Shown: positions 45,710 to 62,265 of the stretch, piece after piece
How the letters are laid out: the number at the start of each line of letters is the position of its first letter
Numbering within the stretch: the stretch's first letter is position 1
Assembly: GCA_964612665.1 (NCBI GenBank)
Contig: CAZTCI010000004.1
Span: forward strand, 142,376 to 206,375
Origin: an uncultured Planctomycetales bacterium
GTDB lineage: Bacteria > Omnitrophota > Gorgyraeia > Zapsychrales > JAHFFX01
DNA length: 64,000 nucleotides
Reading direction: 5' to 3'
Position numbers and translations under genes: made by a program
The notes under the pieces: model-generated
Database searches by the model: none
What the model was told of the DNA's origin: nothing
What the model saw: only the letters and a program-made list of their open reading frames with translations

Positions 45710-46504
45710 GTGGATCAGGAGACCTGGCGCATTCACAATTATTTACGCCGACGGATCGTTGATATGGTCGTTGAAGGACGCGACGGACATATCCCGAGTG
45801 CGTTTTCTATTTTGGATCTCGTTACTCTTTTGTATAAATACTATTTAAAATTTGATCCCACCAAACCGCAATGGCCGGAGCGGGATTATTTTATTTTAAG
45901 CAAAGGCCACGGGTGCTTGGCGTTGTATGTGAATTTGAAAGAGCATGGATTTATTACCGAGGAGGATTTGAAGAAATTCTGTAAGGCTGACGGCATTCTA
46001 GGTGAACATCCGGATTCGACCAAGGTGCCAGGGGTTGAAGCCTGCACAGGTTCTTTGGGCCACGGCATTTGTTTTGCCGTCGGGCTGGCGCTCGGATTGC
46101 GCATTCAAGGACAAAACAATAAGATTTATGTTTTAGTTGGCGACGGCGAATGTCACGAAGGGACCGTGTGGGAAGCGGCGAATATCGCGAACAATTTACA
46201 ATTGGGAAATCTTTGTGTCATCGTTGATTGGAACGGTTCAGCCGCGCAATTGATGCCGCGTGATGACTTGCCGTCGAAATGGCGGGCGTTCGGCTGGCAG
46301 ACGCGCGTGATTGACGGCCATTCTTTGAAAGAAATTCACGGCGCATTTAATGCTACGGAATTCCGCAGTGAAGGCTCTCCGTCGGTAATTCTAGCCAAGA
46401 CAATCAAAGGAAAAGGTGTTCCGATGCTGGAAGGCCACGGCAGCTGGCACCACCGTATTCCAAATGAGCAAGAATATAAAGTGATTATGGAAGCCTTGAC
46501 TTAA
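45710..46504 (+). CDS. transketolase, N-terminal (ThDP-binding) subunit; GTG start tentative
   Basis: Split-transketolase N-section motifs (GHIPSAFSILDL, GSLGHGICFAVGLAL, GDGECHEGTVWEA). Confidence 0.7.
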   Translation: MDQETWRIHNYLRRRIVDMVVEGRDGHIPSAFSILDLVTLLYKYYLKFDPTKPQWPERDYFILSKGHGCLALYVNLKEHGFITEEDLKKFCKADGILGEHPDSTKVPGVEACTGSLGHGICFAVGLALGLRIQGQNNKIYVLVGDGECHEGTVWEAANIANNLQLGNLCVIVDWNGSAAQLMPRDDLPSKWRAFGWQTRVIDGHSLKEIHGAFNATEFRSEGSPSVILAKTIKGKGVPMLEGHGSWHHRIPNEQEYKVIMEALT

Positions 46505-46533
46505 CCACCCCAACCCCGGGGGTTGAGGTGGTT
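46503..46533. repeat. family E palindromic repeat (CCCCAACC / GGTTGGGG type), copy E1
   Basis: aaccaccccaacccc-ggg-ggttgaggtggtt directly after the transketolase-N stop. Confidence 0.6.
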
Positions 46534-46557
46534 TTTGAGTTAATTCGAGAGAAGATT

Positions 46558-47499
46558 ATGTCAAAAGATATCCGGCAACAATTCGCCGACACAATGCTTG
46601 AAGTGGGACAGGAAGATCCGTTGCTCACTGTTCTCGTCTCAGATATAAGTCATTTTAAATTACAGCCGTTTGCCAAAGCTTGTCCGGGACGATTTTATAA
46701 TATCGGAATTTGTGAACCAGCAATCGTCAGCATGGCCGCGGGATTATCCAAAGCCGGATTGCATCCTGTTGCGCACACAATCACGCCTTTTTTAATTGAA
46801 CGCTGTTTTGAGCAGATTAAGCTGGATTTTTGTTATCAAAACCTAGGAGGAAATTTAATTTCGGTTGGCAGCGCTTTTGATTACGCTGGTTTAGGCTGTA
46901 CACATCATTGTTATAATGACTTCGCGATTTTAAAATGTTTGCCAGGTATTAACCTATTTTACCCGTCGAGTGCGCTTGAATTTGACCGCTTGTTTCGTTT
47001 GAATTATAAAAATGGCCACTTGAATTATTATCGTCTCCCTGCCCAAAGCCATGGTCATGCGTTTGATGCAAAAGAGATTACGCATGGTTCTGGAATAAAG
47101 ATCACGCCAGGAAACGATTTGACAGTTGTCGTCACCGGCCCGCAACTAAAAAATGTGCTGGAAGCCTGTACAGTTCTAAAACGAGAGGGCTGGGATCCGG
47201 AGGTGATTTATATTCATACGATCCATCCTCTGGATGAAAATATGATTTTGGAAAGTGTCCGTAAAACGAGGCATGTGCTAGTTATCGAGGAACATATTTT
47301 TCACGGCGGGCTGGCGCACACGATAAAATCTCTGTTGCAAACGCCCAATGACATTCAACTAACCTACCTCTGTATTCCTCCCGAATTTTTGCGCGGTTAT
47401 GGGACTTATGAAGACCAATGCCGGCGCATTAATTTGACGGCCCAGGGTATCGTCGCAAAAATTAGAAAAGATTTTAAAAGAAGAATGGTTTCGGCATGA
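46558..47499 (+). CDS. transketolase, C-terminal (pyrimidine-binding plus C-terminal) subunit
   Basis: Pyr-domain and TKC-domain sequence. Adjacent to the N-subunit gene. Confidence 0.7.
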   Translation: MSKDIRQQFADTMLEVGQEDPLLTVLVSDISHFKLQPFAKACPGRFYNIGICEPAIVSMAAGLSKAGLHPVAHTITPFLIERCFEQIKLDFCYQNLGGNLISVGSAFDYAGLGCTHHCYNDFAILKCLPGINLFYPSSALEFDRLFRLNYKNGHLNYYRLPAQSHGHAFDAKEITHGSGIKITPGNDLTVVVTGPQLKNVLEACTVLKREGWDPEVIYIHTIHPLDENMILESVRKTRHVLVIEEHIFHGGLAHTIKSLLQTPNDIQLTYLCIPPEFLRGYGTYEDQCRRINLTAQGIVAKIRKDFKRRMVSA

Positions 47500-50369
47500 A
47501 GGAATTACGCGCCTACCTGACAAATCAAGAATGGCGAACGTGTGGCTTTGTGTTATTAAGTTGTCTTGTGTCATTTTTGATTATGTGTTTAATGCTTCCC
47601 GAGGTTTATGTTTTTTGTCGGTATAGTTTCATTCGGTTCAGTGATACAGGTTTGAATTATCAAGGCGTTTTTGCATTGTTGACCAACTTTTATCACGGCG
47701 GAATCGAGTTATGGAACAGTTATGATCAGATGCCTTACGCTTTTCAGCATTTGGTCGCCGGCATTTATAATTTTATGAACATTGCGGTGGCGGCCGCTTA
47801 TATTTTATTCCATCGGTTTTTTGAATCGCCGGCGGTTGCTTTTCATGTCATTTACACATTGGCCTATCATCTCTCCGCATTTTTCTTAAGGGCCTTCGGC
47901 GCTTACCTGTTGGCCACGCATTTTACGTCGAGAAAATCGATCCTCTTTACCGGTTGTATATTAATTAATACGATTTTGATTCCGCATTTTCATTTAGGTT
48001 TAAATACAAACGCGTTGTTCAGTTTTTTCCCATTGATGACACATTTTATGCTGAGGTTCTTTGAAAAATTTGAACTGAACGATCTTTTACTTGCCATAAC
48101 AACGTACACGCTGGCTGCAGCGACGACGCCTTTGGTATCAGTCAGTTATTTTTATCTCGGAAATCATTTTGTTCTATTAATGTGCATGAGCTGGGCGTTG
48201 GTTAAAAACTGGAATCAAATTTTGAAAGCTTTACAGAAACCCAAAGTCCCGCTGAAATGGCTCAGAAACCGTTTCAATGGACGGGTTGTATTAAAAATCG
48301 CGCTGGTTCTGTTCCTGTGTTTAGTGATTATCTTGCCAAGCGCTTACATGCTTAAAACAAATTATAAGGACTACGAATGCGATCAAGCACACAGCCGCTT
48401 CAACAATATGCTGAGTATCAAAGCTTATTTCGAACGCAGTCTTTATTTTGCGCCTAAGGAAGAATTTTTGTGGCGATTGGTTGATTATACGCGCAACAAT
48501 TGGACTTTTTCTTGGGTTTACGTCGGGTATTTGATGGTGTTTCTTTTGGGAGCGGGATTAATTTTAAGCGCGGACAGCCGCAAATATATTTTCTTTGGGT
48601 CGATTTTTTCCTTTTGGTTAATCAACAGCCCGAGGATGTCCCATAGCTGGACGGATATTGGACATTGGATTAACGCGCTCACCAATCCTTTTAAATTTGC
48701 GGCCAATACCTTTCATATGGCCGGGGCGCTGCAGATGTGTTTTGTCATGTACCCTTTGTTGATCATCGGCCTTGAGGCTTTTTATAATTTGGTTCAAAAA
48801 AACTACACGGCAGATTATAGGCGCCGGGTTCATTTGTTAATTATTTTTTTGGCTGTTTTTTGTTTGTGGATCTGGAACGATGTCGATTTAGAAATCAAAA
48901 CTTATGTGTTCCGGGCGACATTGGGATTTGCGTTGCTTTTATTATTTTTAAAGGTTGAGAAATATTCTGTCCGACGGAGGGCGCTGGCGGCGCTGTTTGT
49001 TGTCGGGTTGGTCTTTGTGGGCGATTGGCATGGGATGCGGGTTTATTTAAAAGATACAATGAACCAAGTTTTTATGAAGACACATCGTATCCGTAATTTA
49101 GAGAAAGCAGGCTATGTGGATTTGGATTACCGGAACCCGGAAGTTTTTCCGCGGCGTCTTTATTTTTCGAATTCGTTCATCGGACAGGTGGATAATTTTT
49201 TGCAAGCGGATGCGATCGGAATGCAGGGGATCTATTATGAATACACAGATTTTTACAAATATTTTATGCCGGTCAACAATTACAAACCCCGGCACAAAGC
49301 TTACGCACATTGGCCAGGTAATAGTAAGTCGAATGTTTATTATCCTTTTGAATTGTGGCCGGGCGATAAAGATATGCTTAATTACGTGGCCCGGGACACG
49401 CGGCTGATTTTTGAGGCGCGGTCGGGCGTGCCTTTTCATGAAAATCTGTTTCATGACATTCTAAATCACCGGTGGGACCGTCAAGTCATCATGGTTCACG
49501 ATGTTCTTCCCGGCGAGATTCCGGCGGAAGTTTTTAAAAATAATTTGCCGGAGAAAGTTGACCCGCCCATTGCGGATGATTTTAAATGGCATATTGCCAA
49601 CATCGCATTGAACTCAGCGCAGAAATCGGAAGAACATTATGACGCTGTTGAATACACGTTTCCTTTGCCAAAAAGTTTTCCAGACCATTTAACCAGCACA
49701 ATTTTTACTAATGACCGGGGATTGCTCAGGGTTTTTGTATTTCAAAAAGATCAGAAAGATCAGCAGATTGAGTTAACGATTGCGCAAGGAAGGCTCGTGG
49801 CGCCTTTTACCTTTGATGTACGTAACATGTATCCAGATAAGTTGAGCGTTATGCTTCCGCGCGATTTTCAACCATCGGATGGATTGGTGCATTTTCTTTT
49901 CTGGTCGGGAGCGAAGGCAGGTTTGGATGAAATCTGGCGTAATGAAAATGACAACTTTGGTTTTAATTATATAGCTTCGGAAAACGGGTGGTTGGTTTTG
50001 CATTATCCGTATGATGATAAATGGAAAATCACGATGGACGACAAACCCGTCAAATTCTACCGCGTTAATAAAAGTTTTATGGGCTTTCCAATAACTCAGG
50101 GAGAACACCGCATTTTATTGCGATATTGGCCCAACACGATTTTGCGGCCTTTGATTTTTGTCTCAATTGTTTTTTATTTGTTGGCGCTGCCAGCAGTTAT
50201 CGGTATTGGGATGCGTCGAGAAAGAAGGATAGAAGTTATGGTGAGGGAAGGGCGGCCTTCGGAAATTTACGATCCGGGGCCGCCCAACTCGTCGCCATTT
50301 AAGCCCATCATGACAAACCTAAAAGCACCTGAAGGAGATTTCTCATGGTCCAGCCGCAAGTTGATTTAG
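47496..50369 (+). CDS. YfhO-like GT-C membrane glycosyltransferase (957 aa), paralog 1
   Basis: About 500-aa polytopic N-domain (YHGGIELWNSYDQMP) and a soluble C-domain ending in the YfhO-type motif LHYPYDDKWKITMDDKPVKFYRVNKSFMGFPI..GEHRILLRYWP. 40-50% identical to 53671..56394. Confidence 0.55.
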   Translation: MKELRAYLTNQEWRTCGFVLLSCLVSFLIMCLMLPEVYVFCRYSFIRFSDTGLNYQGVFALLTNFYHGGIELWNSYDQMPYAFQHLVAGIYNFMNIAVAAAYILFHRFFESPAVAFHVIYTLAYHLSAFFLRAFGAYLLATHFTSRKSILFTGCILINTILIPHFHLGLNTNALFSFFPLMTHFMLRFFEKFELNDLLLAITTYTLAAATTPLVSVSYFYLGNHFVLLMCMSWALVKNWNQILKALQKPKVPLKWLRNRFNGRVVLKIALVLFLCLVIILPSAYMLKTNYKDYECDQAHSRFNNMLSIKAYFERSLYFAPKEEFLWRLVDYTRNNWTFSWVYVGYLMVFLLGAGLILSADSRKYIFFGSIFSFWLINSPRMSHSWTDIGHWINALTNPFKFAANTFHMAGALQMCFVMYPLLIIGLEAFYNLVQKNYTADYRRRVHLLIIFLAVFCLWIWNDVDLEIKTYVFRATLGFALLLLFLKVEKYSVRRRALAALFVVGLVFVGDWHGMRVYLKDTMNQVFMKTHRIRNLEKAGYVDLDYRNPEVFPRRLYFSNSFIGQVDNFLQADAIGMQGIYYEYTDFYKYFMPVNNYKPRHKAYAHWPGNSKSNVYYPFELWPGDKDMLNYVARDTRLIFEARSGVPFHENLFHDILNHRWDRQVIMVHDVLPGEIPAEVFKNNLPEKVDPPIADDFKWHIANIALNSAQKSEEHYDAVEYTFPLPKSFPDHLTSTIFTNDRGLLRVFVFQKDQKDQQIELTIAQGRLVAPFTFDVRNMYPDKLSVMLPRDFQPSDGLVHFLFWSGAKAGLDEIWRNENDNFGFNYIASENGWLVLHYPYDDKWKITMDDKPVKFYRVNKSFMGFPITQGEHRILLRYWPNTILRPLIFVSIVFYLLALPAVIGIGMRRERRIEVMVREGRPSEIYDPGPPNSSPFKPIMTNLKAPEGDFSWSSRKLI

Positions 50370-51097
50370 ATCACGACGTTTTAGAAAAATACAAAAAAGA
50401 CGGTTTTGCTATTATCAAACTTTATAACGACAATGAAGTGGCTGTACTTGAAAAGTTTACTTCACAGTGGCTCTACCGTCTTCTGGCGCCTTGGGTCAAA
50501 GGCCGCGAAGCCGAATTCCCTTTAGACAAATATCACGTTTGGTCAAAAACACTCCAAGTGGACCATGGCCAGCTTTTCCGTGCGCAAAATCGTTATATGT
50601 CTCCCGAACTGATAATTGAAAAAACGGTTTTGAATTCTAAGGTCGATGAATTTATGCGTTTGATCGGCTGGCCCGATTATAAAGTGCGTGATGAAGGGTT
50701 AGGCTGGATAGGTTTTCGTTTTATCCGTCCAGGTGTTAATGATGGTTATCCTTTTTCGCGCAAAGCCTGGGGCTACGCCAAAAATTGTGTGTCCTGCTGG
50801 ATCCCAATCATTGGCCATAACCCCAGCGAAACCTTGCGTCTTATACCGGGTTCGCACTTAAAGGAATACGAAAGTTTCTTACCGACGGACCAAAAATTCA
50901 CGCGCGGCGAATACCGCCTGGCCCAAAAACCAGAAGACCATGAAATCTACAGCCCGGCCTTAAAAAAAGGCGAGGCCATATTTTATGATCATATGACATT
51001 GCACAGCGAAGATGTCATTAAAAGTTCTGTAACTCGACTCAGTCTAGAATTTCGGGTCGTTCAAACCTCCCCAACCCCGGAGGTTGGGGAGGTTTAA
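50345..51097 (+). CDS. phytanoyl-CoA dioxygenase (PhyH)-family Fe(II)/2-oxoglutarate oxygenase
   Basis: WIPIIGHNPSETLRLIPGSHLKEY with downstream His (FYDHMTLHSE) fits the PhyH facial triad. The last approximately 10 residues are encoded by repeat E2. Confidence 0.55.
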   Translation: MVQPQVDLDHDVLEKYKKDGFAIIKLYNDNEVAVLEKFTSQWLYRLLAPWVKGREAEFPLDKYHVWSKTLQVDHGQLFRAQNRYMSPELIIEKTVLNSKVDEFMRLIGWPDYKVRDEGLGWIGFRFIRPGVNDGYPFSRKAWGYAKNCVSCWIPIIGHNPSETLRLIPGSHLKEYESFLPTDQKFTRGEYRLAQKPEDHEIYSPALKKGEAIFYDHMTLHSEDVIKSSVTRLSLEFRVVQTSPTPEVGEV

Positions 51098-51127
51098 CCA
51101 TCCCAACCTCCGGGGTTGGGGAGGTCA
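51064..51127. repeat. family E palindromic repeat, copy E2 (two tandem hairpins)
   Basis: aacctccccaacc-ccgg-aggttggggaggtt followed by cccaacc-tccgg-ggttgggg. Confidence 0.65.
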
Positions 51128-51130
51128 GCC

Positions 51131-52135
51131 ATGCATTACAGGTTATTAGGGAAGTCATCCTTAAAAAGTTCGGTCGTCGGCATTGGCGCTTTGCATTTCG
51201 GTGTCTTTGTTAATGCTCTGGGCGTTGAACAAATTATCCACCGGGCGATTGATTTAGGAATTAATTTAATCGACTCGGCGCCTCAATACGGCCAAGGACA
51301 GGCGGAAAATTTTATTAATAAAGCGATCTGCGGCCGTCGGAGTAAAGTTTTTCTAACCAGCAAGGTTGGATTAAGACCCATTAAAGACGCCCAAGGCCGT
51401 TTTGGTGTTGAAACGGTTCCGTTAACCGCTCAAATCATCCGTCAAACAATCGAAAATAGTTTGCGTGCTTTAGGAACGGATTACATTGATCTTTTTCAAA
51501 TTCACGCGTTTGATGAGGAGACATCGTTTGAAGAAACGTTAAAGACGCTCGATGATCTTGTAAAAGAAGGAAAGGCCCGCACCGTCGGGTGCTGCAATTT
51601 GGAACATTCTGAACTTTTAGCGGCCTTTCAAGTGAACCGTTCGCACGGATGGCCAGGATTTGTTTCCTGTCAGATGCATTACAACTTGATCGAACGGCGC
51701 GCCGAAGACCAGATTATTCCTGTCTGCCAAGAATTAGAAATAACACCGATCGCCTACCGGGCATTGTGCCGCGGCATTTTGACCGGACAATATAAAGTTA
51801 ACGAACCTGTTCCGCAAGAAAGCCGCGCCGCGACGAGTTATCGTGTGGCGCGCTGGCTTGAACCGCAAACATTATCAGTCATCGAAGCTTTAGAAAATTT
51901 TGCCGCCGCCCGCGGGTACTCGATGGTGCAGTTATCTTTGGCCTGGTTATTATCACGGATCCCGAAAGCCATGGCTGTTGTCGGCGTGCGCAATCTTGAG
52001 CAACTCGAATCCTGCGTCAAAGCAACACAGTGGTTGTTAGACGACCAGGACCTAAAAGAAGTTGATGCGATCATTGACGAATTTGGCCTGACCGCTCAAG
52101 TGCGTCAAAGGCCTGAGACATTTCTGGAAAAATGA
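51131..52135 (+). CDS. aldo/keto reductase
   Basis: AKR fold motifs (IDLFQIHAFD..., active-site region). Start set at MHYRLLGKSSLKSS. Confidence 0.75.
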   Translation: MHYRLLGKSSLKSSVVGIGALHFGVFVNALGVEQIIHRAIDLGINLIDSAPQYGQGQAENFINKAICGRRSKVFLTSKVGLRPIKDAQGRFGVETVPLTAQIIRQTIENSLRALGTDYIDLFQIHAFDEETSFEETLKTLDDLVKEGKARTVGCCNLEHSELLAAFQVNRSHGWPGFVSCQMHYNLIERRAEDQIIPVCQELEITPIAYRALCRGILTGQYKVNEPVPQESRAATSYRVARWLEPQTLSVIEALENFAAARGYSMVQLSLAWLLSRIPKAMAVVGVRNLEQLESCVKATQWLLDDQDLKEVDAIIDEFGLTAQVRQRPETFLEK

Positions 52136-52953
52136 ATTCTTATCCTGAATTAAAGGGGAAAGTTGTTGTGATAACCGGCGCTGCGCACGGGATTGGCAAA
52201 GCGTTGGCCATTGCTTTCGCCGAGGCGCACGCGAAGGTCGTGATTGTTGACATTGACCGTCGGGCAGGCGAGGCGTTGTCACAGAAATTGCAAAGAAGCG
52301 GTTTCGAATCGCTTTTCATTTATACGGATTTGAGAAAAGAAGAGCAGATCAAAAAGGCCGTTCAGTTAACTAAAAAGCATTTTAAAAGAATCGATGTCAT
52401 CATTAACAACGCCCGGCCAAGATTGACTAAATTAACTCTGGGCGCTGGTTTAAAAGAATGGGACGCCGCGATGGATGTTTTATTGAAAGCTCCCGCCATG
52501 CTTGTCCATTATGCTCTTTCAGAATTAATCAAGAATAAAGGCCAGATTATTAATATGACATCGACGAATTCCTTTTCTGTTTCTCAACAGCCGTTAGTCT
52601 ATCATGTGGCCAAAGCCGGGATTGTGCAAATGACACGGTATTTGGCTTATGAATTTGGGCCGCAGGGTTTACGGGTCAACGCCATTTGCCCAGCGCTCGT
52701 CGATGTTCCCGATGAAGCTAAACCCTCTTTGACGGCTGATCGAGAAAATGAAGAAGTCATCAAATCAATCGTTCCGCTGCAAAGAGCCGCCAAAGTTAAA
52801 GAGATCGCTCAAAGTGCGCTTTTTTTATGCAGTGAACAGTCTTCGTATTTGACCGGACAAGTGCTTTTGCTTGACGGCGGATTGATGCTGGGCGAGCCTT
52901 TCCGTCTGGCGCGAAAAACATTTCTTAAAGGTAAACACCCAAATCATGTCTAA
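52132..52953 (+). CDS. SDR-family oxidoreductase
   Basis: VVVITGAAHGIGKALAIAF motif. YHVAKAG YxxxK. Confidence 0.8.
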   Translation: MNSYPELKGKVVVITGAAHGIGKALAIAFAEAHAKVVIVDIDRRAGEALSQKLQRSGFESLFIYTDLRKEEQIKKAVQLTKKHFKRIDVIINNARPRLTKLTLGAGLKEWDAAMDVLLKAPAMLVHYALSELIKNKGQIINMTSTNSFSVSQQPLVYHVAKAGIVQMTRYLAYEFGPQGLRVNAICPALVDVPDEAKPSLTADRENEEVIKSIVPLQRAAKVKEIAQSALFLCSEQSSYLTGQVLLLDGGLMLGEPFRLARKTFLKGKHPNHV

Positions 52954-53680
52954 CGACATCTCTATTATCGTTCTAGCTTTCAACGAAGAAAAGAATATTG
53001 AATCCGCCATCGACAATGTCATCCAAGCGATTAAACCTTGCGTGTCTGATTATGAAATTCTCGTCGTTAACGACGGCAGCCGGGACACCACAGGGACTTT
53101 GACGGAAGCAAAAGCCAAAGAGAATCCCAAAGTAAAAGTCATTCACAATGAAGTCAACCGCGGCTATGGTTACAGTTACCGTCGGGCGCTAGCCTTGGCT
53201 TCCAAAACTTATGCCACAACTTTTTCGGGCGATAACGACATGACGGCGGAATCGTTGCAAAATCTTTTGGCGGCAATGGGAACCGCTGATGTGATTTGTA
53301 ATTATTATGATCCAAAGACAAACCAGAGAGGCCTTTTAAGAAAAATGTTATCCAAGTCGTTTGCGTTTTTTATTAATACACTTTTTGGTTTGCATTTGAA
53401 ATATACAAACGGCTCTTGCCTGTGCCTAGTTGAGACGCTGCGCCAATTAGCCTTAAAGTCCGACGGGCTTGCGATCAATACGGAAATTCTTGTGAAGCTA
53501 TTAAAGTCAGGCTGCAGTTACAAAGAAGTCCCTTTAGATCATATTGGACGCCATTCAGGAAAATCAACAGCATTGACCTTGCGTAGTTTAAAGATGGTAT
53601 TGAGGACGATCAGCATTTTAATCAAAGATGTTTATTTGTCACCGTCCGTTAAACAAGAGAGTGCTGTTTCTTGCCTATGA
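52946..53680 (+). CDS. GT2 polyprenol-phosphate sugar synthase (Dpm1/GtrB/CsbB-like)
   Basis: ISIIVLAFNEEKNIESAID...YEILVVNDGSRD GT2 DxD region. About 240 aa, typical of the Dpm1/GtrB family. Immediately followed by a YfhO-like GT-C gene. Confidence 0.75.
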   Translation: MSNDISIIVLAFNEEKNIESAIDNVIQAIKPCVSDYEILVVNDGSRDTTGTLTEAKAKENPKVKVIHNEVNRGYGYSYRRALALASKTYATTFSGDNDMTAESLQNLLAAMGTADVICNYYDPKTNQRGLLRKMLSKSFAFFINTLFGLHLKYTNGSCLCLVETLRQLALKSDGLAINTEILVKLLKSGCSYKEVPLDHIGRHSGKSTALTLRSLKMVLRTISILIKDVYLSPSVKQESAVSCL

Positions 53681-56394
53681 GTATCAAGAAGCCCGACATA
53701 AATAATTGGCTGGTCATGATCGTCGGTCCTATTATCTGCTCGGCATTTTTGATGCTTTTTATTTTCCCCGACCGGCTTTGGTTCCACCATGTGAGTTTTA
53801 TCCGCAATTTGGATTTGGAATTTTGTTACGAAGGTGTTTTTACGCTTTTGTATAATTTTTATCACGGCGGGATCCAGCTTTGGGATGTTTATGACCAGAT
53901 GCCGCTGGCGTATCATCATTTGGGCGGCGGACTTTATACGTTTACTAATGTCGCCCCGGCGTTTGTTTATGTTGTTCTTTCCCCGCTCTTTCAATCCTCC
54001 GCTGATGCTTTTCAGGTGATTTATTCGGTTGCTTTTGTTTTGTTGCCTTTTTTTTTGAGAACGGCAGGAGCGTTTTTGATCGCGCGGCATTTTAGCCGCA
54101 GTATACCGGTTGTGTTTGCGGTGTGTGTTTTATTTAACACAACTCTTGTGCCTCAATTGCATATGGGATTGTCGGCGGGAGATTGTTACAGTTATTTTCC
54201 ATTGGTTATGTTTTTTATTTTACGGTTCTTTGAAAATTTTAAGCTGAATGATTTTCTTGGCGGGCTTTTGATTTTTGTGATAGCGATTGCTTCTAATCCG
54301 CTTGTAGGGCCGGGATATTTTTATCAAGGGTTACATTTTTTGATTTTATCGTGCGCGGTGTGGGCCTTAATTTTTAACCGGGAAGTTTTTTTCATTTTTG
54401 TTAAGAAAATTCCAACGCACCTTAAGGCCTTAGCGCAGGGAAAAGAAAATAATACTTTGTTTAAGATTGGGCTTGTTGGATTGCTGGCATTTATTATTCT
54501 GGCGCCGTCGCTGCACATGACTCTGTTTAATTGGCATGATTATGAGTTTGATGTCGAACATAGCCGATTTAATAGTGTTTTTAATATAGGCGCTTATTTT
54601 GACCGGCCTGTTTTTTTTGCCAAGCAAAGTGAGTTTTTGAAAAGATGGCTTGATTATAATCATAATGATTGGGGCAACACCTGGCTTTTTTTTGGATATG
54701 TTCCTTTATTCTTGGTTGTGGCTGGCATTTTGATGAGCAGAGATGACCGGAGATTTATTTTTCTATTAACGTTATTTTTTTTCTGGCTGATCAACAGTCC
54801 GCGACATTCATCGGGCTTAAGTGGGCTGGCGCATTGGTTGAACGCTCTGACGAATCCTTTGAAATTCTTGCCGCGGTCGTTTCATATGGTAGGCGCTTTT
54901 ATGAGTTCTTTTATTTTATTACCGCTGACCACGATCGGCCTGCAGTCCGTCGAGGATACGATAAAAGACGCAGTAAATCCGCGCAGCCGTCTTAATATAG
55001 TGTTGACCGCCGGCGTGTTGGGTTTAATTGTGATTATGCTTTTAGGAAAGTTTGAACTGGAGATTAAACAATATCTGCTGCGGGCATTTTTGATTTCGAT
55101 CGTCATTTTATATTTCTTGTGGCAAAAGCCGTGGGGCAGAATTGTTTCGGGAAGTGCGGCTGCTTTTTTGTTAGGCGTTATTTTTTTGATGGATTGTTAT
55201 GGAAGCTATCGATACATTAAACAATTTGCCGACGCTGTTGTCATGACGCAGTACCAATTGAAAGGTTTGGAATCTAGCGGTTCGGTTAATTTAGATTACC
55301 GTAATCCCAAAATTTTACCCAGACGTTTTTATTTTACGATCCGGCCGTTAGGCTCGGTGCCGTATTATTTATCTCTGGACCCGGCGGGGATGCAGGGATT
55401 GTATTTTCAGTTCACGGATTTTCTAAAATATTTTCTGCCCATTGATAATTATAAACCCAGGCACATCGCTTACGCGAAATGGCCTGGGACCAGTCGAAAA
55501 AATACCGCCTATACATACGATCAATGGCCCGTTGACCAAGATATGTTGAATTATTTATTGAAGGACCAGAACCTTTTATTCTTCGCCGAAACTGCGGTCA
55601 GTCCTCGCAAAGACATTTATCGTGAGATTCTGGATCATCATATGGAAAGACAGGTCGCTGTTATTGAACCCCTAGCAAGCGATTCCGACGCCGTCATATC
55701 AGATCATCTTCCCGAAAATGTAGAGCCGCCCAAGCCCAAGAATATAATTATGAAATGGCAGCAGATCCCTTTAGCCGGAGCTGCCAGCACAAAGGAAGAT
55801 TATAATTTTATAGAATATATTTTTCCTTTACCTAAAGATTTTCCCAATTATTTGGCTAGCACTGTATTCTCCGACGACCGGATCTTGACCCGCGTTTTAT
55901 TAGGCCCGAAAAGATCTATTGAATTAACGCCAGCTCAAGGCAAATTAATCCGGCCTTTTACTTTTGATGTGCAGAACATGCAGAAGGGAAAGTTTTCGAT
56001 CTTGCTTCCGAAGGGTTTTGCTGCCGATACAGAACCGGTGACACTTGTGTATATGGTGGACAATACTGGCGGGATTGGGAAAGTCTGGAAAAATGAGCCG
56101 GACAATTTCGGTTTTGATTATACAGCTTCTAAAAATGGTTGGCTTGTTATTCATTATCCTTATGATTCCAAATGGCGGATGACAGTGGATGACCGGCCGG
56201 TCCAGATATATCGTGCTAATAAAAGTTTTATGGGTGTTCCTTTAGAACGAGGGAAACACCGAATCTTATTACGCTATTGGCCGTCGACGATTTTAAGGCC
56301 TTTGATTGTTTTTTCTTTTGGGACCATGATTTTAACTTTGCTGGGTGTTATTGCGATAGGTATCCATGAGGAAAATTTGTATGCCCGAAATTGA
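53671..56394 (+). CDS. YfhO-like GT-C membrane glycosyltransferase (907 aa), paralog 2
   Basis: Same architecture as 47496..50369 (YHGGIQLWDVYDQMP...; C-terminal IHYPYDSKWRMTVDDRPVQIYRANKSFMGVPL..GKHRILLRYWP). Confidence 0.55.
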   Translation: MPMSIKKPDINNWLVMIVGPIICSAFLMLFIFPDRLWFHHVSFIRNLDLEFCYEGVFTLLYNFYHGGIQLWDVYDQMPLAYHHLGGGLYTFTNVAPAFVYVVLSPLFQSSADAFQVIYSVAFVLLPFFLRTAGAFLIARHFSRSIPVVFAVCVLFNTTLVPQLHMGLSAGDCYSYFPLVMFFILRFFENFKLNDFLGGLLIFVIAIASNPLVGPGYFYQGLHFLILSCAVWALIFNREVFFIFVKKIPTHLKALAQGKENNTLFKIGLVGLLAFIILAPSLHMTLFNWHDYEFDVEHSRFNSVFNIGAYFDRPVFFAKQSEFLKRWLDYNHNDWGNTWLFFGYVPLFLVVAGILMSRDDRRFIFLLTLFFFWLINSPRHSSGLSGLAHWLNALTNPLKFLPRSFHMVGAFMSSFILLPLTTIGLQSVEDTIKDAVNPRSRLNIVLTAGVLGLIVIMLLGKFELEIKQYLLRAFLISIVILYFLWQKPWGRIVSGSAAAFLLGVIFLMDCYGSYRYIKQFADAVVMTQYQLKGLESSGSVNLDYRNPKILPRRFYFTIRPLGSVPYYLSLDPAGMQGLYFQFTDFLKYFLPIDNYKPRHIAYAKWPGTSRKNTAYTYDQWPVDQDMLNYLLKDQNLLFFAETAVSPRKDIYREILDHHMERQVAVIEPLASDSDAVISDHLPENVEPPKPKNIIMKWQQIPLAGAASTKEDYNFIEYIFPLPKDFPNYLASTVFSDDRILTRVLLGPKRSIELTPAQGKLIRPFTFDVQNMQKGKFSILLPKGFAADTEPVTLVYMVDNTGGIGKVWKNEPDNFGFDYTASKNGWLVIHYPYDSKWRMTVDDRPVQIYRANKSFMGVPLERGKHRILLRYWPSTILRPLIVFSFGTMILTLLGVIAIGIHEENLYARN

Positions 56395-57037
56395 TTTACT
56401 GCAGAATTATCCAAGGACAAAAAGAAATTTAGAAGAAAGGGCTCAGCTTAAAAGTGAAGAAGACCGCGCGATTGCCCGGCGTTTTGGCAAAGAATTCTTC
56501 GACGGAGACAGGCGTTTCGGCTACGGCGGATTTACCTATCAAAGCCGGTTTTGGCAGCCGGTTGTGCCCGATTTTCAAAAGCATTATGGATTAACAAACA
56601 AGAGCTCAGTTTTGGATGTAGGATGTGCCAAGGGTTTTATGCTGCACGATTTTATGACGCTTATTCCAGGAATAAAAGTGGTTGGCGTTGATGTTTCGCC
56701 ATACGCGATTGCAAATGCGATGGATGATGTCAAACCTTTTGTGCAGATTGCCGACGCCAAGCAGTTGCCCTTTCCGGACAAATCTTTTGATTTAGTAATT
56801 TCAATCAACACAATCCATAATCTTCCCTTGGAAGAATGCAAACAAGCGCTGCGTGAAATCACCCGCGTTTCGCGGAAACATGCCTTTATCACCGTCGATG
56901 CGTACCGCACGCCGGAAGAAAAGCGGCGGATGGACATGTGGAACCTGACCGCGCTGACGTATATGCATGTTGATGAGTGGATATCTTTATTTAGGGAAGT
57001 GGGATATCACGGAGATTATTTTTGGTTCATTCCATAG
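56381..57037 (+). CDS. class I SAM-dependent methyltransferase
   Basis: VLDVGCAKGFMLHDF motif I and DLVISINTIHNL motif. Alternative start 56366. Confidence 0.65.
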   Translation: MPEIDLLQNYPRTKRNLEERAQLKSEEDRAIARRFGKEFFDGDRRFGYGGFTYQSRFWQPVVPDFQKHYGLTNKSSVLDVGCAKGFMLHDFMTLIPGIKVVGVDVSPYAIANAMDDVKPFVQIADAKQLPFPDKSFDLVISINTIHNLPLEECKQALREITRVSRKHAFITVDAYRTPEEKRRMDMWNLTALTYMHVDEWISLFREVGYHGDYFWFIP

Positions 57038-57038
57038 A

Positions 57039-57117
57039 GTTTGCCAGTTCTCCAGTTACCAGTTCTCCAGTTTTAATTTTCAAACTGGTTAACTGGCAAC
57101 TGGAAAACTCGAGAACT
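57039..57117. repeat. family F palindromic repeat, copy F2
   Basis: gtttgccagttctccagttaccagttctccagtt...aactggttaactggcaactggaaaactcgagaact. Confidence 0.7.
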
Positions 57118-57121
57118 GATT

Positions 57122-58156
57122 ATGAAAACAAAAGCCGCCATTTTATACGAATTAAATAAACCGCTGATTATCGACGAGGTTGAAATCCCACCGCTTAAAC
57201 GCGGGCAGGTATTGGTCAAGATTTTATTCAGTGGTATTTGCGGCGCGCAATATAACGAGATCATTGGATTGAAAGGGCCGGACCGCTTTCTGCCGCACTT
57301 GCTGGGTCATGAAGCTTCCGCGATCGTCGATAAAATTGGTCCTGGCGTGACAAAGGTTAAGAAAGGTGATTACATTGCCCTATCGTGGATTAAAGGCAAA
57401 GGGTTGGACGGTTTAAATACTCAGTATCAAAAAAACGGCCGCGTCATTAATGCTGGAGCGGTGACAACTTTTAGTGAATATTCGGTTGTTTCCGAAAACC
57501 GGGTGACTAAAATATCAAAACAGATGCCGCCGGATGTAGCTGCGATTATCGGCTGCGCGATTGTGACGGGATCAGGGATTGTTCATAACACTCTTCAGGT
57601 TAAACCTAAGACAAGTATTGCTATTTTTGGCGTTGGGGGAATTGGTTCGAGTGTGCTTTTGGCCGCGCGGAAAGCTGGCTGCCAGATCATTATTGCTGTC
57701 GATCTTTCTTCGACAAAACTTGAAGCAGCAAAAGAATTAGGTGCAACCCACACTATCTCAGCGGATGATCCAGAACTCGTTCAACGCATTAAAGAGATTC
57801 TTCCGTCGGGTGCAGATTATTCGGTTGATGCCTCTGGCGCCCGTAGAGCTATGGAAACGGCCTTTGAAATTTTAAACACCAAAGGCATCTGCGTTATTGC
57901 TGGGAATCTAAGTAAGGATGAAAAAATTTCCTTGCATCCTTTTGAATTGATCAAAGGCAAGCGTATCGTCGGGACTTGGGGCGGTGAAACCAATCCGGAT
58001 AAAGATATTCCGAAATATGTCAGGCAGTATCTGGACGGCGGACTGCCGATCAAGAAAATGATCACTCACCGCTTCAAGCTGGATCAAATCAACGCGGCCT
58101 TTGAAACGTTAAAGAAAAAAGAAGCCGGCCGTATTGTCCTGGATATGACGCCGTAA
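57122..58156 (+). CDS. zinc-dependent medium-chain alcohol dehydrogenase
   Basis: GICGAQYNEIIG...GHEASA zinc-binding region and GVGGIGSSVLLAA Rossmann motif. Confidence 0.8.
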   Translation: MKTKAAILYELNKPLIIDEVEIPPLKRGQVLVKILFSGICGAQYNEIIGLKGPDRFLPHLLGHEASAIVDKIGPGVTKVKKGDYIALSWIKGKGLDGLNTQYQKNGRVINAGAVTTFSEYSVVSENRVTKISKQMPPDVAAIIGCAIVTGSGIVHNTLQVKPKTSIAIFGVGGIGSSVLLAARKAGCQIIIAVDLSSTKLEAAKELGATHTISADDPELVQRIKEILPSGADYSVDASGARRAMETAFEILNTKGICVIAGNLSKDEKISLHPFELIKGKRIVGTWGGETNPDKDIPKYVRQYLDGGLPIKKMITHRFKLDQINAAFETLKKKEAGRIVLDMTP

Positions 58157-58163
58157 GGAGGCC

Positions 58164-59651
58164 ATGTTGGTTGAAAGTCTTTCAATTCTGATTCCGGCAT
58201 TTAACGAGCAGGACAATATTGAAAAGGCGATCGAAAGTGTGTTGTACGCCGTCCAAGGGTTGGTCAAAGATTTTGAAATCGTTGTTATTGACGACGGAAG
58301 TACCGATCAAACAAAAAAGCTTGTCATTGAGAAGGCCCAAAAAAATCCTGCCATTCGTTTGGTTTCTTATCCGCATAATCAAGGCTACGGCATTGCTTTC
58401 CGACGGGGAATGGAAGCCGCTACAAAAATGTGTTTGACGACATTTCCCGGCGACAATGATATGTCCAGGGAATCTCTGCGCGACATTATTAAAGCGGGAG
58501 GCCAGGCAGATTTGATTCTCTCTTATATGCTGGCCAACCAAAAGCGCAGTCTTTCTCGACGGATGATTTCAAAATCCTTTGTGCTGGTGTCGAACACCTT
58601 GTTTGGATTAAAACTCCGTTATTATAATGGCGCGTTTTTGTGTCGTACTGACCTTCTGCAAAGAATTCCTATCAAATCAACTGGAATGACACTGCACGCC
58701 GAGTGTATTGTTCGCTTGATCAAAGCAGGTTGCAGTTATAAGGAAATTGCTTTTGAGCACACCGGACGAATGGCGCATGCTTCTAAAGCGTTGAAGCTCA
58801 AACATTGCTGGTCGGTGGTTAGAGCGATGGGCGTGTTATTTAAAGATATTCATTGGCTTTCCAAAAGAGGAAATAATTCTGGAGCTGGAAATAAATCCAA
58901 TAAGCTGGATATCTCTGTCATTGTTCCTGCTTTTAATGAAGAAGGAAATATTAAGGATGCTATTAACAGCGTTCTTGGCGCGCTTGAGGGAATTACAGAG
59001 GATTATGAAATCATCGTAATTGACGACGGGAGCCGTGATCAAACCTTAAAGTTTGCTCAAGAATGCGCTGAATCAAATCAGCGTGTCCGCGTTTTTACCA
59101 ATGGAACAAACAAAGGCTACGGTATTGTTTTTCAGTGGGGTGTTGCCTTGGCCACCAAGACTTATTTTACCTTATTTCCCGGTGATAATGATCTAGCGGC
59201 TTCATCGCTGCATAATGCCATGAAACAAATCGGCCAGGCCGAGATTATTACCTCGTATCCCGTCGCTAATCACCGCCGGTCATTATTCCGAAAGACCGTT
59301 TCCAAAACGTATGTGCTTTTGATTAACGGACTATTCGGTCTTGATCTTCGCTACTATAACGGCCCGTTTGTGTATAAAACCTCGGTGCTGCGTAACATTC
59401 CGATCCGGTCGACCGGTCTCGGCGTTTTATCTGAATGTTTAATTAAACTTTTGAAAAAAGGCTATAGCTACAAAGCCATTCCTTTTGAACATGTAGGGCG
59501 CAAATCGGATAAATCCAAGGCGTTTAGTTTGAAAGGGATCGTTTCGGTCGTCCAAACACTGTGTATTCTAATCAAAGATCTTCGTGACCAGAAAATAAAC
59601 GGCAAGACTGTTTATGTGGATCGATCTTTTGATTCGTCGTCGATAAAATGA
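58164..59651 (+). CDS. tandem double GT2 (two Dpm1/GtrB-like modules fused)
   Basis: Two internal repeats, each with (L/V)IPAFNE...YEI(V/I)VIDDGS(T/R)DQT and the downstream (Y/N)NG(A/P)F... motif. Followed by a third YfhO-like gene. Confidence 0.7.
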   Translation: MLVESLSILIPAFNEQDNIEKAIESVLYAVQGLVKDFEIVVIDDGSTDQTKKLVIEKAQKNPAIRLVSYPHNQGYGIAFRRGMEAATKMCLTTFPGDNDMSRESLRDIIKAGGQADLILSYMLANQKRSLSRRMISKSFVLVSNTLFGLKLRYYNGAFLCRTDLLQRIPIKSTGMTLHAECIVRLIKAGCSYKEIAFEHTGRMAHASKALKLKHCWSVVRAMGVLFKDIHWLSKRGNNSGAGNKSNKLDISVIVPAFNEEGNIKDAINSVLGALEGITEDYEIIVIDDGSRDQTLKFAQECAESNQRVRVFTNGTNKGYGIVFQWGVALATKTYFTLFPGDNDLAASSLHNAMKQIGQAEIITSYPVANHRRSLFRKTVSKTYVLLINGLFGLDLRYYNGPFVYKTSVLRNIPIRSTGLGVLSECLIKLLKKGYSYKAIPFEHVGRKSDKSKAFSLKGIVSVVQTLCILIKDLRDQKINGKTVYVDRSFDSSSIK

Positions 59652-61885
59652 ATGTATTCTTCAATATAATCCGCCGTCCTTGGAAATTACTGTTCCCGGT
59701 TTTATTGTGGCTTGTTGTTTTTCTCGATTTTTTGACCGGTAAAAACGTTATTAATCTGGACACCGTTCTAAGTTACGGGGTCGCTAAGTTTTTTGTTAAT
59801 AATATTCTTAACGGTGTTTTTCCGCTATGGGATCCTTTTGTATATTTGGGTACACCTTTTTATAGCCTGGTTTTTTTGGGGCTTTTTAGTCCGCTTATTT
59901 ATGTCATGGCTTTTCTGGTTTTGCTCGGGGTCAATTATTATGAATCTTACCTGATCTATTTATTATTAAATTTTTTTATAGGCTGTTTAGGGTATTACTT
60001 TTTGGCGAAGGAAATCATCGACGATGAAGACTTGGCCTTTTTCGCTTATACGGCGCTATTGTTTTCCGGAATGAGTCACATTGTTTTTTCTCAATTAAAT
60101 ATGCTGTTATTGTTTGTGCCCAGCGGCTGGTTCTTTTATTTTCTTCTGCGTTTTGCCAAGCATTTTCGTCATGGCGATTTTTTGGGCCTGACATTCAGCG
60201 TCATGATGATTTGTAATCATTATCTGCCGTTTCATTTCATAACGTTATTTTTGGTTTTTGGAATTGTTTTTATCCTCTTGTATTTTGAAAATTTTTTGAG
60301 ATTTCTGAACAAGTTTATGCTTTTTTGCCGTGACAATACGGCCTTTGTTGTTCTTTGCATTTTAGGAATCACGGTGGCTTTAGGACCGGCGGCTCTGTAC
60401 AAACTTGCTAACCGTCCGGACCAAATAGTTACTCCCGCCCGTCAGTGTATTAATAAAACACCGGAGGAATGCTATGCTTCGACGATGTATAACCAATCTT
60501 TATTAAGCTATAAAGAAACATCTGGAACAGGATCGCTGGGGGAACGGACGGATTTTGGGGATTTGTTTTTCCATTTAGACAAGATTAGCTATAGCAACGA
60601 CAGTTTTTTTTATGTCTCGGTGTTTTGTTATCTGCTGATCATTATAGGAGCCATCGCCCGTTTTGACCGCAAAGTCCTTTTATTATTTTTAGTCGGCGCA
60701 GGGGTCTTTATCATTTCTCTGGGCCAATCCACGCCCGTACATCCATTTTTATGGGAACATGTTTTTTATTTTAAATCGTTCCGCAATTTCTTTTTCTTTA
60801 TGGGATTTCTAATGCCGCTCGTTATTTTATTTAGTTTTGCGCAATTTAAACTGCTTATGGATGAGCTTAAAACATTGACTGGCCCGAGGAGAAAAGTCAT
60901 TTTTGGTGGCATTGTCATCTTGCATATTCTTTTCCTGGCCTTTCTTTGGAGTCCTGACCAGAAGCTCAAAACGACTTTTTTAACGGTGTTAGGAAGCCTG
61001 CTGCTTTTTATCGGCTATTTTTATGAAATAAAAATATTAAAAACGGAATTAAATAAATTTCTATTGTTCGTTTTAATTGTCTTACAGCCGGTTGAGGTTT
61101 TTTATTTTTTTAATCAAAATGCCCGGCAATATTCCTGTGAACTTCCTCGTGAACATGTAAAACCGCAATTTTCTTTTAACCGCCCGGCTAATAATGTTGA
61201 TCTGCCCTGCTTTGCCAAACTTTTCAACCGATTTGTTAAAGATTTTTGGTATGACATGCTTTTAAGTGATTCTACCGGCGCCATTGATATGCCAGGACAA
61301 ATCACGCGCGGCGTTTTTCATCTGTCCATGTATTTACCTCATCCGAATTGGCAAGAATACGTGCGTTACAAATTTTTGGCTTATGACCGGGTCAAGCCTT
61401 TGGACAAAAGTCAGAAAGAATTGGCCGTTCTTCTCGATACGTTGAAAAATAAAGAAAACCTTATATTTATTGATCAGCCGGATACAAAAGTGCTAAACGC
61501 TTTTTCACCAGACCATTCGGTGATGGGAGCGCATTTCATAGCCGTTACCGAGCCCAATATGGGTTTTAATATTGAACATTATGATGCTAATTCTTTGAGA
61601 TTTAAAACCAATGTCACAAGCGATATTATGCTGGTTTATACGCAAAGTTTTCATACCGGCTGGAAACTTTGGATCAATGGAAAATCTAGCAGGCTTTATA
61701 AAATTGATTATGCCTTTCAAGGCTTTTGGCTGCCCGCCGGAATGAATACGGTTGATTTGAAATATGAACCGCTGGGCGGAAGCAAAGTATATGTTTTAAT
61801 AACGTTGTTTATTCAAGCTTTTTTTCTGGGCACAGTCATTCAACTTTATCGAGAAAAATTTAAATTAAACGCCATCGAAACATGA
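59648..61885 (+). CDS. YfhO-like GT-C membrane protein (745 aa)
   Basis: Polytopic N-domain. C-terminal QSFHTGWKLWINGKSSRLYKIDYAFQGFWLPAGMNTVDLKYEP resembles the YfhO C-terminal motif. Confidence 0.45.
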   Translation: MNVFFNIIRRPWKLLFPVLLWLVVFLDFLTGKNVINLDTVLSYGVAKFFVNNILNGVFPLWDPFVYLGTPFYSLVFLGLFSPLIYVMAFLVLLGVNYYESYLIYLLLNFFIGCLGYYFLAKEIIDDEDLAFFAYTALLFSGMSHIVFSQLNMLLLFVPSGWFFYFLLRFAKHFRHGDFLGLTFSVMMICNHYLPFHFITLFLVFGIVFILLYFENFLRFLNKFMLFCRDNTAFVVLCILGITVALGPAALYKLANRPDQIVTPARQCINKTPEECYASTMYNQSLLSYKETSGTGSLGERTDFGDLFFHLDKISYSNDSFFYVSVFCYLLIIIGAIARFDRKVLLLFLVGAGVFIISLGQSTPVHPFLWEHVFYFKSFRNFFFFMGFLMPLVILFSFAQFKLLMDELKTLTGPRRKVIFGGIVILHILFLAFLWSPDQKLKTTFLTVLGSLLLFIGYFYEIKILKTELNKFLLFVLIVLQPVEVFYFFNQNARQYSCELPREHVKPQFSFNRPANNVDLPCFAKLFNRFVKDFWYDMLLSDSTGAIDMPGQITRGVFHLSMYLPHPNWQEYVRYKFLAYDRVKPLDKSQKELAVLLDTLKNKENLIFIDQPDTKVLNAFSPDHSVMGAHFIAVTEPNMGFNIEHYDANSLRFKTNVTSDIMLVYTQSFHTGWKLWINGKSSRLYKIDYAFQGFWLPAGMNTVDLKYEPLGGSKVYVLITLFIQAFFLGTVIQLYREKFKLNAIET

Positions 61886-62265
61886 ACGGTAAATCCATTT
61901 TTAAAAAAGTGCAAAGCCTAGGGCAAAGAGGCATCTTGTTATATGTCATTCTTTTTATGACGGCTTCAAGGTTTAACTGGCCGTTGGCCGCCAAACATCG
62001 TCTGGGTTATTTATGGGGAATTTTTTTGCAGAGCGACATGGCGAACTGGAACGATGGATTTCTTTTTTTCGAGAAAAAGATTGCAAAGAATCCCGACGAA
62101 GCGAGCGCTTATGCCGGGTTGGGCGTATCTTGTCTTTACTTAGGAAGATATGATGAGGCCGAAACGCTTCTTAAAAAAGCTTTGGATATGTCTCCGCAAT
62201 TATATCCTTCCGTAAAAGAATTCTTAGCCGAGCTTAAACAAAAAAAACAAGGGTCTAATCAATGA
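61882..62265 (+). CDS. TPR-repeat protein with N-terminal membrane anchor
   Basis: TPR-like helices (AYAGLGVSCLYLGRYDEAETLLKKALDMSP). Confidence 0.45.
   Translation: MNGKSIFKKVQSLGQRGILLYVILFMTASRFNWPLAAKHRLGYLWGIFLQSDMANWNDGFLFFEKKIAKNPDEASAYAGLGVSCLYLGRYDEAETLLKKALDMSPQLYPSVKEFLAELKQKKQGSNQ

Follow-up and report, generated by a model that had tools for sequence, protein, structure and literature searches.

The window analysed here is a stretch of 64,000 nucleotides of DNA from an uncultured bacterium of the phylum Omnitrophota. It carries genes for three large YfhO-type membrane proteins (A, B, and C) and for three modules of glycosyltransferase family 2 (GT2), one encoded by the gene GT2a and two fused in the gene GT2b (Table 1). 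An earlier reading of the sequence, made without database searches (the sequence-only reading), had taken these genes for repeated pairs of a polyprenyl-phosphate (Pren-P) sugar synthase and a YfhO-like membrane glycosyltransferase of fold class C (GT-C). The open reading frames (ORFs) that it listed were all recovered on the plus strand where it had placed them. The start of B is probably to be moved from the TTG at 53671 to the ATG at 53677, which gives a protein of 905 aa in agreement with a public gene call.

The genes belong to a cluster of 27 genes (positions 32950–63935), all of which lie on the plus strand within ~31 kb, with a largest intergenic gap of 152 nt. Housekeeping genes are found downstream of 63935 on the source contig, so the cluster ends there. 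The region of the GT2 and GT-C genes is the distal half of this tightly packed single-strand glycan operon. ATGA overlaps connect the C part of a split transketolase (its stop) with the start of A, GT2a with B, GT2b with C, C with a small TPR protein, and the latter with a polytopic TPR protein. The GT2a/B overlap is 4 nt if B begins at the ATG. As the sequence-only reading had stated, GT2a and GT2b are each followed immediately by a large membrane protein.

Three YfhO-type membrane proteins

The YfhO profile of Pfam (PF09586) matched A, B, and C with 52.1, 52.1, and 29.9 bits, respectively, against a gathering score of 28.5 bits. The YfhO-type C-terminal motif that had been proposed was thus recovered in all three proteins, and the match was to YfhO and not, instead, to unrelated transporter families. 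Only positions ~755–828 of the 835 profile positions were covered. A and B are 44% identical across ~886 residues, and A scored 1166 bits against the profile of the A/B family (P0196). The likeness of C to A and B detected by BLAST was confined to the C-terminus. An hhalign comparison of the A/B and C family profiles gave a full-length alignment (99.5% probability, E 7e-23, 695 aligned columns), and the profiles have in common the motif GG(I/V)(Q/F)(L/P)LW(D/N) after the first transmembrane (TM) helix, TM1. The C-family profile was also aligned in full length with the protein P0074 (98.2%, E 5e-14), of which residues 122–492, in the TM region, match positions 95–433 of the Pfam YfhO profile. 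By these profile comparisons, A, B, and C probably form one superfamily connecting to canonical YfhO, as divergent clades within it. The paralogy presumed for the large proteins holds for A and B; C is a distant relative and not a close paralog of A and B, and its full-length homology to them is seen by profile only. One relative already bears the label "YfhO family protein" from automated annotation. The only NCBIfam matches of the C-terminus of B were PgfM1 and PgfM2, with 24 bits as against cut-offs of 1400–1500, and a sequence comparison of the A/B profile with all PDB chains found no relative.

AlphaFold models of B and C were made from the family alignments. The mean pLDDT and pTM values were 85.8 and 0.87 for B and 93.0 and 0.93 for C. 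Both models consist of ~13 helices, followed by a beta-rich domain and a last TM helix. The fold of C matched those of ALG12 (15.4), ArnT (14.7), AglB (14.3), AftD (12.9 over 513 aligned residues), and another 16. The membrane core of the models has the GT-C fold. In GT-C enzymes, the loop after TM1 is the site of the catalytic carboxylates (PMC8035078). In this loop of B, D48 is conserved (90% Asp and 10% Glu, together 100%), and the position of D75 is Asp in 95% of the sequences. The corresponding residues of C are D38 (81% Asp and 12% Glu, together 93%) and D62 (73% Asp and 10% Glu). Judging from these alignments, B and C have the acidic residues (DxD or modified) of the first extracytoplasmic loop of GT-C enzymes. 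The Lys/Arg-rich N-terminus and the homology to GT-C enzymes suggest that the loop is periplasmic. A, B, and C are putative transferases of sugar from a lipid phosphate to an extracytoplasmic acceptor.

Both families are rare. A word-based search of 5.8 billion proteins found 21 matches for B and 54 for C, and an exhaustive hidden Markov model (HMM) search for the A/B type among 1.84 billion cluster representatives gave 174 matches at E<=1e-30. The hit numbers were increased to 1,069 and 31,518 at E<=1e-10 and E<=1e-3, respectively, and the largest set is taken to be the wider YfhO superfamily. All 18 recovered genome loci (referred to by L numbers below) were from metagenome-assembled genomes of "Candidatus Omnitrophota" or from those labelled uncultured Planctomycetales or Planctomycetia; one homologous protein is labelled Chlamydiota. 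Several of the loci (L003, L008, L013, and L015) share the tailoring genes of the window at 50–75% identity and have two or three YfhO-like genes in tandem. Among 30 YfhO-like genes in relative loci, a search at HMM sensitivity found a GT2 directly adjacent to 7 and within 5 kb of 10, which are lower bounds as many of the contigs are truncated. The pairing is therefore recurrent, far above chance for two random neighbours, and not obligatory. A literature search within the library available found no link between YfhO and Omnitrophota.

GT2 modules and the tandem double GT2

The Pfam search for GT2 (PF00535) gave one match in GT2a and two in GT2b (residues ~6–231 and ~249–473), as expected from the sequence-only reading. 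The three modules show pairwise identities of 44–50%; the two halves of GT2b are 50% identical to each other and 44–46% identical to GT2a. Hydropathy analysis detected no hydrophobic TM segment in GT2a or GT2b. A processive synthase of the PgaC, cellulose, or chitin type was rejected for this reason, and the NCBIfam matches to PgaC span only the N-terminal ~110 residues.

A GT2 family profile was built from 20 sequences, the three modules of the window and 17 single-domain relatives. It was aligned with ArnC over positions 15–220 of 255 (E 5.8e-21), with the Pyrococcus DPMS (PfDPMS) over positions 13–238 (E 2e-20), and with GtrB over the shorter range of positions 11–162 (E 2.9e-19). With GT2 structures not of the Pren-P type, the alignment was confined to the N-terminal nucleotide-binding half, about 120–135 residues. 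The alignments indicate that the glycosyltransferase domain of fold class A (GT-A) is homologous to those of Pren-P GT2s through the juxtamembrane-helix region. The Dpm1-like nature proposed for these proteins is thus upheld by near full-length profile alignments to ArnC and DPMS and by the absence of a processive-type TM domain. The NCBIfam models that gave long alignments were AglJ, ArnC, a haloarchaeal dolichyl-phosphate hexose transferase, and PpgS (NF058614), in every case with scores far short of the equivalog cut-off; the last two models cover GT2a and each module of GT2b over almost their entire length. The relatives often carry the name dolichol-phosphate mannosyltransferase or a fused GtrA (PF04138) or PMT/PMT_2 GT-C domain.

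In ArnC, the arginines R128, R137, and R205 bind the phosphates of acceptor and donor. The equivalent of R137 is invariant in the family (R132 in GT2a), and that of R205 is present in all three modules of the window. No arginine is aligned with ArnC R128; a conserved Arg/Lys is found nearby. Where Pren-P GT2s have the DAD(LQ) form of the DXD motif, the modules read (S/P)GDND, with the invariant D96 in the place of the third Asp, which binds the metal. C-terminal TM helices, of which GtrB, ArnC, and CsbB have two and PfDPMS four, are absent from the GT2s of the window. Pren-P GT2s without TM helices do exist, namely those of the DPM1 and PpgS types. The C-terminal helix of GT2a (residues 213–230) is strongly amphipathic, with a hydrophobic moment of 0.68, and could lie on the membrane surface.

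The fused double GT2, which had been called uncommon, was the only GT2-GT2 double among the 120 best-scoring homologs listed. Other homologs of 480–600 aa were considered as double GT2s and rejected, since all of them combine a GT2 with a short-chain dehydrogenase/reductase (SDR), epimerase, methyltransferase, or other domain. The fusion also occurs in a contig from an independent assembly (L021; 494 aa with two PF00535 matches) and hence is no assembly artefact of the window. The lone GT2 beside the C-like gene in L003 is 51% identical to the C-terminal half of GT2b and 47% identical to the N-terminal half, which weakly suggests that the extra module is the N-terminal one. We know of no description of a tandem double module in the Pren-P GT2 class, and the double GT2 represents a small enzymological curiosity.

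Fusions of another kind were observed in relatives. The GT2 beside the YfhO-like gene is fused to an S-adenosylmethionine (SAM) methyltransferase in L011 (8461–9948) and L019 (5282–6748) and to an epimerase/dehydratase domain in L012 (8105–9910), and in database relatives the GT2 is joined to an SDR or a DegT aminotransferase domain. These fusions suggest that sugar tailoring is physically coupled to the loading of the lipid carrier.

A proposed two-step route and its alternatives

A two-step route like those of Arn, Gtr, and CsbB-YfhO, used three times, would explain the operon, and we assign to this reading a probability of about 0.68. The cytoplasmic dehydratase, reductases, C- and O-methyltransferases, and three thiamine pyrophosphate (TPP)-dependent C-C bond enzymes would make unusual nucleotide sugars. 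The three soluble GT2 modules would each load one sugar on polyprenyl phosphate at the inner membrane face, a flippase, which is not among the genes found, would turn the lipid-linked sugar to the periplasmic face, and A, B, and C would each pass a sugar to an extracytoplasmic acceptor. GT2a would serve B, and the C-terminal module of GT2b would serve C. The extra N-terminal module of GT2b would probably supply A, which is the simplest reading of three GT2 modules and three GT-Cs. The order and coupling of the genes, the GT-C fold, the homology to Pren-P synthases, and the conservation in relatives are observed; we infer the lipid-phosphate monosaccharide donors, the pairings, the enzyme activity, the periplasmic transfer, and the identity of the sugars and of the acceptor. 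The claim that the GT2/GT-C logic appears three times is only roughly right, as there are two gene pairs, with three GT2 modules in all, and an unpaired A, the gene before A being that of the split transketolase. The mechanism itself is established for CsbB/GtcA/YfhO (PMC8035078) and for PgfS/PgfM1 (bioRxiv 10.1101/2024.05.05.592596).

Several observations weigh against this two-step route. The TM parts of A, B, and C alone gave zero Pfam matches even at E<=10, so that direct membership in YfhO depends on a C-terminal segment of ~70 residues. Foldseek ranked the GT-C families named above at the top with weak scores only (best E 9e-4, TM-scores 0.26–0.40) in a structure library that contained no YfhO structure; by these scores, proteins of the A/B/C type lie far in structure from all solved GT-Cs. 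In the DAD motif, the first Asp is missing, being replaced by Ser in GT2a and by Pro in both GT2b modules. A role as catalytic base in Pren-P GT2s has been proposed for this Asp (PMC12690121), and as the role is only a proposal, its loss lowers strict membership in the class without excluding activity. A has no GT2 next to it, and 20 of the 30 YfhO-like genes of relatives have none within 5 kb. As for the flippase, no GtrA domain (PF04138) was found among the window proteins scanned, no ORF of 80–200 aa with at least three TM segments that could encode a GtrA- or SMR-like protein was found in the 64-kb window, and no such flippase was found within 7 kb downstream. The flippase may be encoded elsewhere in the genome; gtcA of B. 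subtilis is likewise encoded apart. In L005, a gene on the plus strand (3475–4047) for a protein of 190 aa, with four predicted TM segments and without a Pfam match, lies directly upstream of a Dpm1-like GT2 gene and overlaps it. The protein might serve GT2s lacking TM helices as a membrane anchor or as a flippase, and no counterpart was found in the window.

Three alternatives to the two-step route were considered. In the first, the GT-Cs would act on polyprenyl-diphosphate oligosaccharides, as oligosaccharyltransferase, ligase, or polymerase, and the GT2s would be ordinary cytoplasmic extenders and not Pren-P synthases. We consider this unlikely. No match to the families of initiating phosphoglycosyltransferases, Wzx flippases, Wzy polymerases, or ligases was found among the window proteins scanned, which favours monosaccharide-phosphate donors. 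In addition, only ArnC and DPMS gave long alignments with the GT2 profile that include the juxtamembrane region, the relatives of the GT2s are fused to GtrA and PMT_2, and the YfhO-family enzymes characterised so far use Pren-P monosaccharides.

In the second alternative, only two functional pairs exist, A being redundant or otherwise supplied, and GT2b is a recent tandem duplication and fusion whose two halves have one product in common and might, for instance, form an obligate pseudo-dimer. The lack of a GT2 beside A would fit such an arrangement, as would the closer relation of the GT2b halves to each other than to GT2a, the function of ArnC and GtrB as oligomers, and the variable ratio of GT2 to GT-C genes in relatives. 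However, at 50% identity the two halves are as divergent as orthologs of other genomes, indicating that the duplication is not recent, and neither of them has lost any of the residues invariant among the 20 aligned sequences of the family. A, at 44% identity to B, has all of the family-conserved residues and hence is not decaying. We regard the two-pair arrangement as quite unlikely. The third alternative, that the large proteins are non-enzymatic structural or transport membrane proteins sharing only a C-terminal beta-sandwich domain with YfhO, agrees with the restriction of the Pfam match to the C-terminal segment and with the unmatched TM regions, and is hardly tenable.

Under the two-step route, the acceptor may be a surface protein, as suggested by the ATGA-coupled TPR gene after C, the C-family homolog P0027, which has fused TPR repeats, and the polytopic TPR protein encoded by the last gene of the cluster. 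The YfhO-family enzymes characterised so far glycosylate teichoic acids or Ser/Thr-rich proteins (PMC8035078; bioRxiv 10.1101/2024.05.05.592596). The small TPR protein is probably a partner of C; in L003, its ortholog comes after the C-like gene. The polytopic TPR protein was also considered as a fourth GT-C, which was unsupported owing to the absence of profile similarity to family C. Its TM part had no match in Pfam, NCBIfam, or PDB. With an architecture like that of TMTC proteins, it may be one more transferase of lipid-linked sugars; alternatively, it may be a partner that binds the acceptor. Two larger homologs of it (811 and 696 aa, with TPR matches only) are encoded upstream of a GT2/YfhO-like pair in L011.

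The operon resembles the CsbB/GtcA/YfhO systems of Bacillus, Staphylococcus, and Listeria (PMC5836110, PMC8035078) in that a GT2 gene directly adjoins a YfhO-family GT-C gene, that the GT-C begins with a polytopic domain, continues with a large extracytoplasmic one, and ends in a TM helix, and that a genome has several GT-A/GT-C pairs (B. subtilis and L. lactis each have three; PMC8035078). In contrast to those systems, the host here is a member of the PVC group, presumably diderm and devoid of teichoic acids, the TM domains have diverged too far to be matched by the Pfam YfhO model, the two TM helices at the C-terminus of CsbB are missing from the GT2s, a GtrA-family flippase is not encoded nearby, and all three GT-Cs share one operon in which they are interleaved with sugar-tailoring enzymes. 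As in the PgfS/PgfM1 system, a GT2 would supply YfhO-family GT-Cs, and as with PgfM1 and PgfM2, two YfhO-type paralogs occur in one cluster with a sugar-modifying enzyme. A protein acceptor, as in that system, is plausible here in view of the TPR partners, whereas acceptor adhesin genes are absent from the cluster, and the lineage and the sugar pathway differ.

The lipid A aminoarabinose pathway (ArnC/ArnD/ArnE-F/ArnT) differs from the operon as follows: ArnC has two TM helices and the DAD motif, ArnT is of the PMT_2 type instead of the YfhO type, and the arn operons include the ArnE/F flippase genes, which are not present here. The human DPM1-type and mycobacterial PpgS synthases are, like the GT2 modules, GT2s of ~230–260 aa without membrane-spanning helices. 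In contrast, the modules score far under the equivalog cut-offs of those families, have S/P-G-D-N-D in place of D-A-D, and occur in one gene as a tandem double.

The logic of a GT-A Pren-P synthase, a flippase, and a GT-C is already known, and the present finding is thus an extension and no surprise. The new features are the PVC-phylum lineage, the divergent membrane domains, the GT2s without TM helices and with an altered DXD motif, the tandem GT2, and a single operon that unites three GT-Cs with an elaborate sugar-tailoring pathway. To our knowledge, YfhO-type GT-Cs have been studied only in Firmicutes, on teichoic acids and Ser/Thr-rich proteins, and hardly anything is known of the envelope of Omnitrophota, a PVC phylum whose members are uncultured and have very small cells. 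The divergent, rare YfhO subfamilies described here are central to a predicted surface-glycan operon that is conserved in this phylum. If the two-step route holds, the three GT2 modules, the three GT-Cs, and the TPR partners would be concrete targets for defining its surface glycans, and the Pren-P monosaccharide route would be able to carry heavily tailored sugars.

A broader proposal, which is speculative and improbable in its full form, is that Omnitrophota have a lineage-specific, expanded set of YfhO-like GT-Cs, up to three enzymes per operon, that attaches rare branched or C-methylated Pren-P sugars to surface proteins, with adjacent or fused TPRs recognising the acceptor and the double GT2 making two different lipid-linked sugars with one polypeptide. 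If true, ultra-small and possibly host-attached bacteria would have a protein-glycosylation system of a new type, and the Pren-P monosaccharide route would for the first time be seen to carry highly tailored sugars.

Other genes of the operon and the window

The remaining genes of the operon are mostly predicted sugar-tailoring enzymes (Table 1), and their families fit the branched-sugar pathway that the sequence-only reading had placed nearby. Three distinct TPP-dependent C-C bond enzymes and a C-methyltransferase-like protein in one operon form an unusually rich set of tools for making branched or extended-chain sugars. The acetolactate-synthase-like enzyme is a candidate for forming a two-carbon branch. 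No sugar-activating nucleotidyltransferase was seen in the window. Orthologs of the methyltransferase and alcohol dehydrogenase between B and GT2b (56366–58156) are present in L003, L008, and L015 at 65–74% identity. A toxin-antitoxin-type pair sits mid-operon, between an SDR gene and the split transketolase. Two ORFs overlap the preceding genes and probably begin too far upstream as listed, the methyltransferase ORF at 40338 (53-nt overlap) and the ORF of the transketolase N part at 45581 (119-nt overlap).

Table 1. Predicted features of the glycan operon and of the divergent block upstream of it
Feature	Position	Strand	Length	Remarks
Radical SAM protein, first cluster gene	32950–33840	+		PF04055; orthologs at 71–73% identity head the L008 and L015 clusters
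GT9 (heptosyltransferase-like)	33993–35018	+		PF01075; weak heptosyltransferase II match; conserved in L008 and L015
NAD-dependent sugar epimerase/dehydratase	35065–36111	+		PF01370
TPP-dependent E1 alpha	36205–37305	+		PF00676, PF02779, PF02780 (alpha and beta); syntenic in L008 and L013
TPP-dependent E1 beta	37384–38424	+		see E1 alpha
Nucleoside diphosphate-hexose 4,6-dehydratase-like	38494–39495	+		PF16363; best NCBIfam match dTDP-glucose 4,6-dehydratase (E 6e-58, under family cut-off)
SDR reductase	39506–40390	+		Pfam
SAM methyltransferase	40338–41042	+		Pfam
Acetolactate-synthase-like TPP enzyme	41122–42942	+		PF02775, PF02776, PF00205; NCBIfam acetolactate synthase matches all under cut-off
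Sugar C-methyltransferase-like	42942–44144	+		Pfam; PF08421 zinc-binding and methyltransferase domain
SDR	44152–44931	+		Pfam
HEPN-like/nucleotidyltransferase pair, toxin-antitoxin type	44955–45699	+		PF08780; PF18765, PF01909
Split transketolase, N part	45581–46504	+		PF00456, PF02779, PF02780 (N and C parts)
Split transketolase, C part	46528–47499	+		see N part
A, YfhO-superfamily GT-C membrane glycosyltransferase (putative)	47496–50369	+	957 aa	PF09586 at C-terminus, E 4.9e-14
PhyH-like 2-oxoglutarate oxygenase	50345–51097	+		Pfam
Aldo-keto reductase	51116–52135	+		Pfam
SDR	52132–52953	+		Pfam
GT2a, TM-less Dpm1/ArnC-like GT2, putative Pren-P sugar synthase	52946–53680	+	244 aa	one PF00535
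B, YfhO-superfamily GT-C glycosyltransferase (putative)	53671–56394	+	907 aa as listed ORF	translationally coupled to GT2a
SAM methyltransferase	56366–57037	+		Pfam
Zn-dependent alcohol dehydrogenase	57122–58156	+		Pfam
GT2b, fused pair of Dpm1/ArnC-like GT2 modules	58164–59651	+	495 aa	modules ~1–240 and ~241–495
C, distant YfhO-superfamily GT-C glycosyltransferase (putative)	59648–61885	+	745 aa	translationally coupled to GT2b
Small TPR protein	61882–62265	+		TPR Pfam matches; ATGA overlap on either side
Polytopic membrane protein with C-terminal TPR domain, last cluster gene	62262–63935	+		~10 TM by hydropathy; TPR matches only
Polytopic protein of divergent block	27764–28972	-	402 aa	~8 TM
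Polytopic protein of divergent block	31104–32729	-	541 aa	~9 TM and C-terminal domain

A divergent block of four genes is located at 27764–32729 on the minus strand. In addition to the two polytopic proteins, which have no Pfam or NCBIfam match, it encodes a GNAT acetyltransferase and a PIG-L-type deacetylase of 462 aa that has a hydrophobic segment at its N-terminus. The block may be a second envelope-glycan module or the site of the missing flippase.

At 10154–11734 on the minus strand, a protein of 526 aa is encoded that has a signal-like N-terminal segment, Gly/Ser/Thr-rich repeats, and a terminal Peptidase_S74 domain, which is the intramolecular chaperone of endosialidase and tail-fibre proteins. 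Its predicted architecture is phage-tail-fibre-like, and its context is chromosomal. Small mobile or toxin-type genes often flank variable loci. Two small genes lie on the plus strand between the housekeeping genes and the glycan region of the window, one for a stand-alone PIN-domain protein (24586–24960; PF01850) and the other for a GIY-YIG nuclease-domain protein of 86 aa (27351–27611; PF01541).

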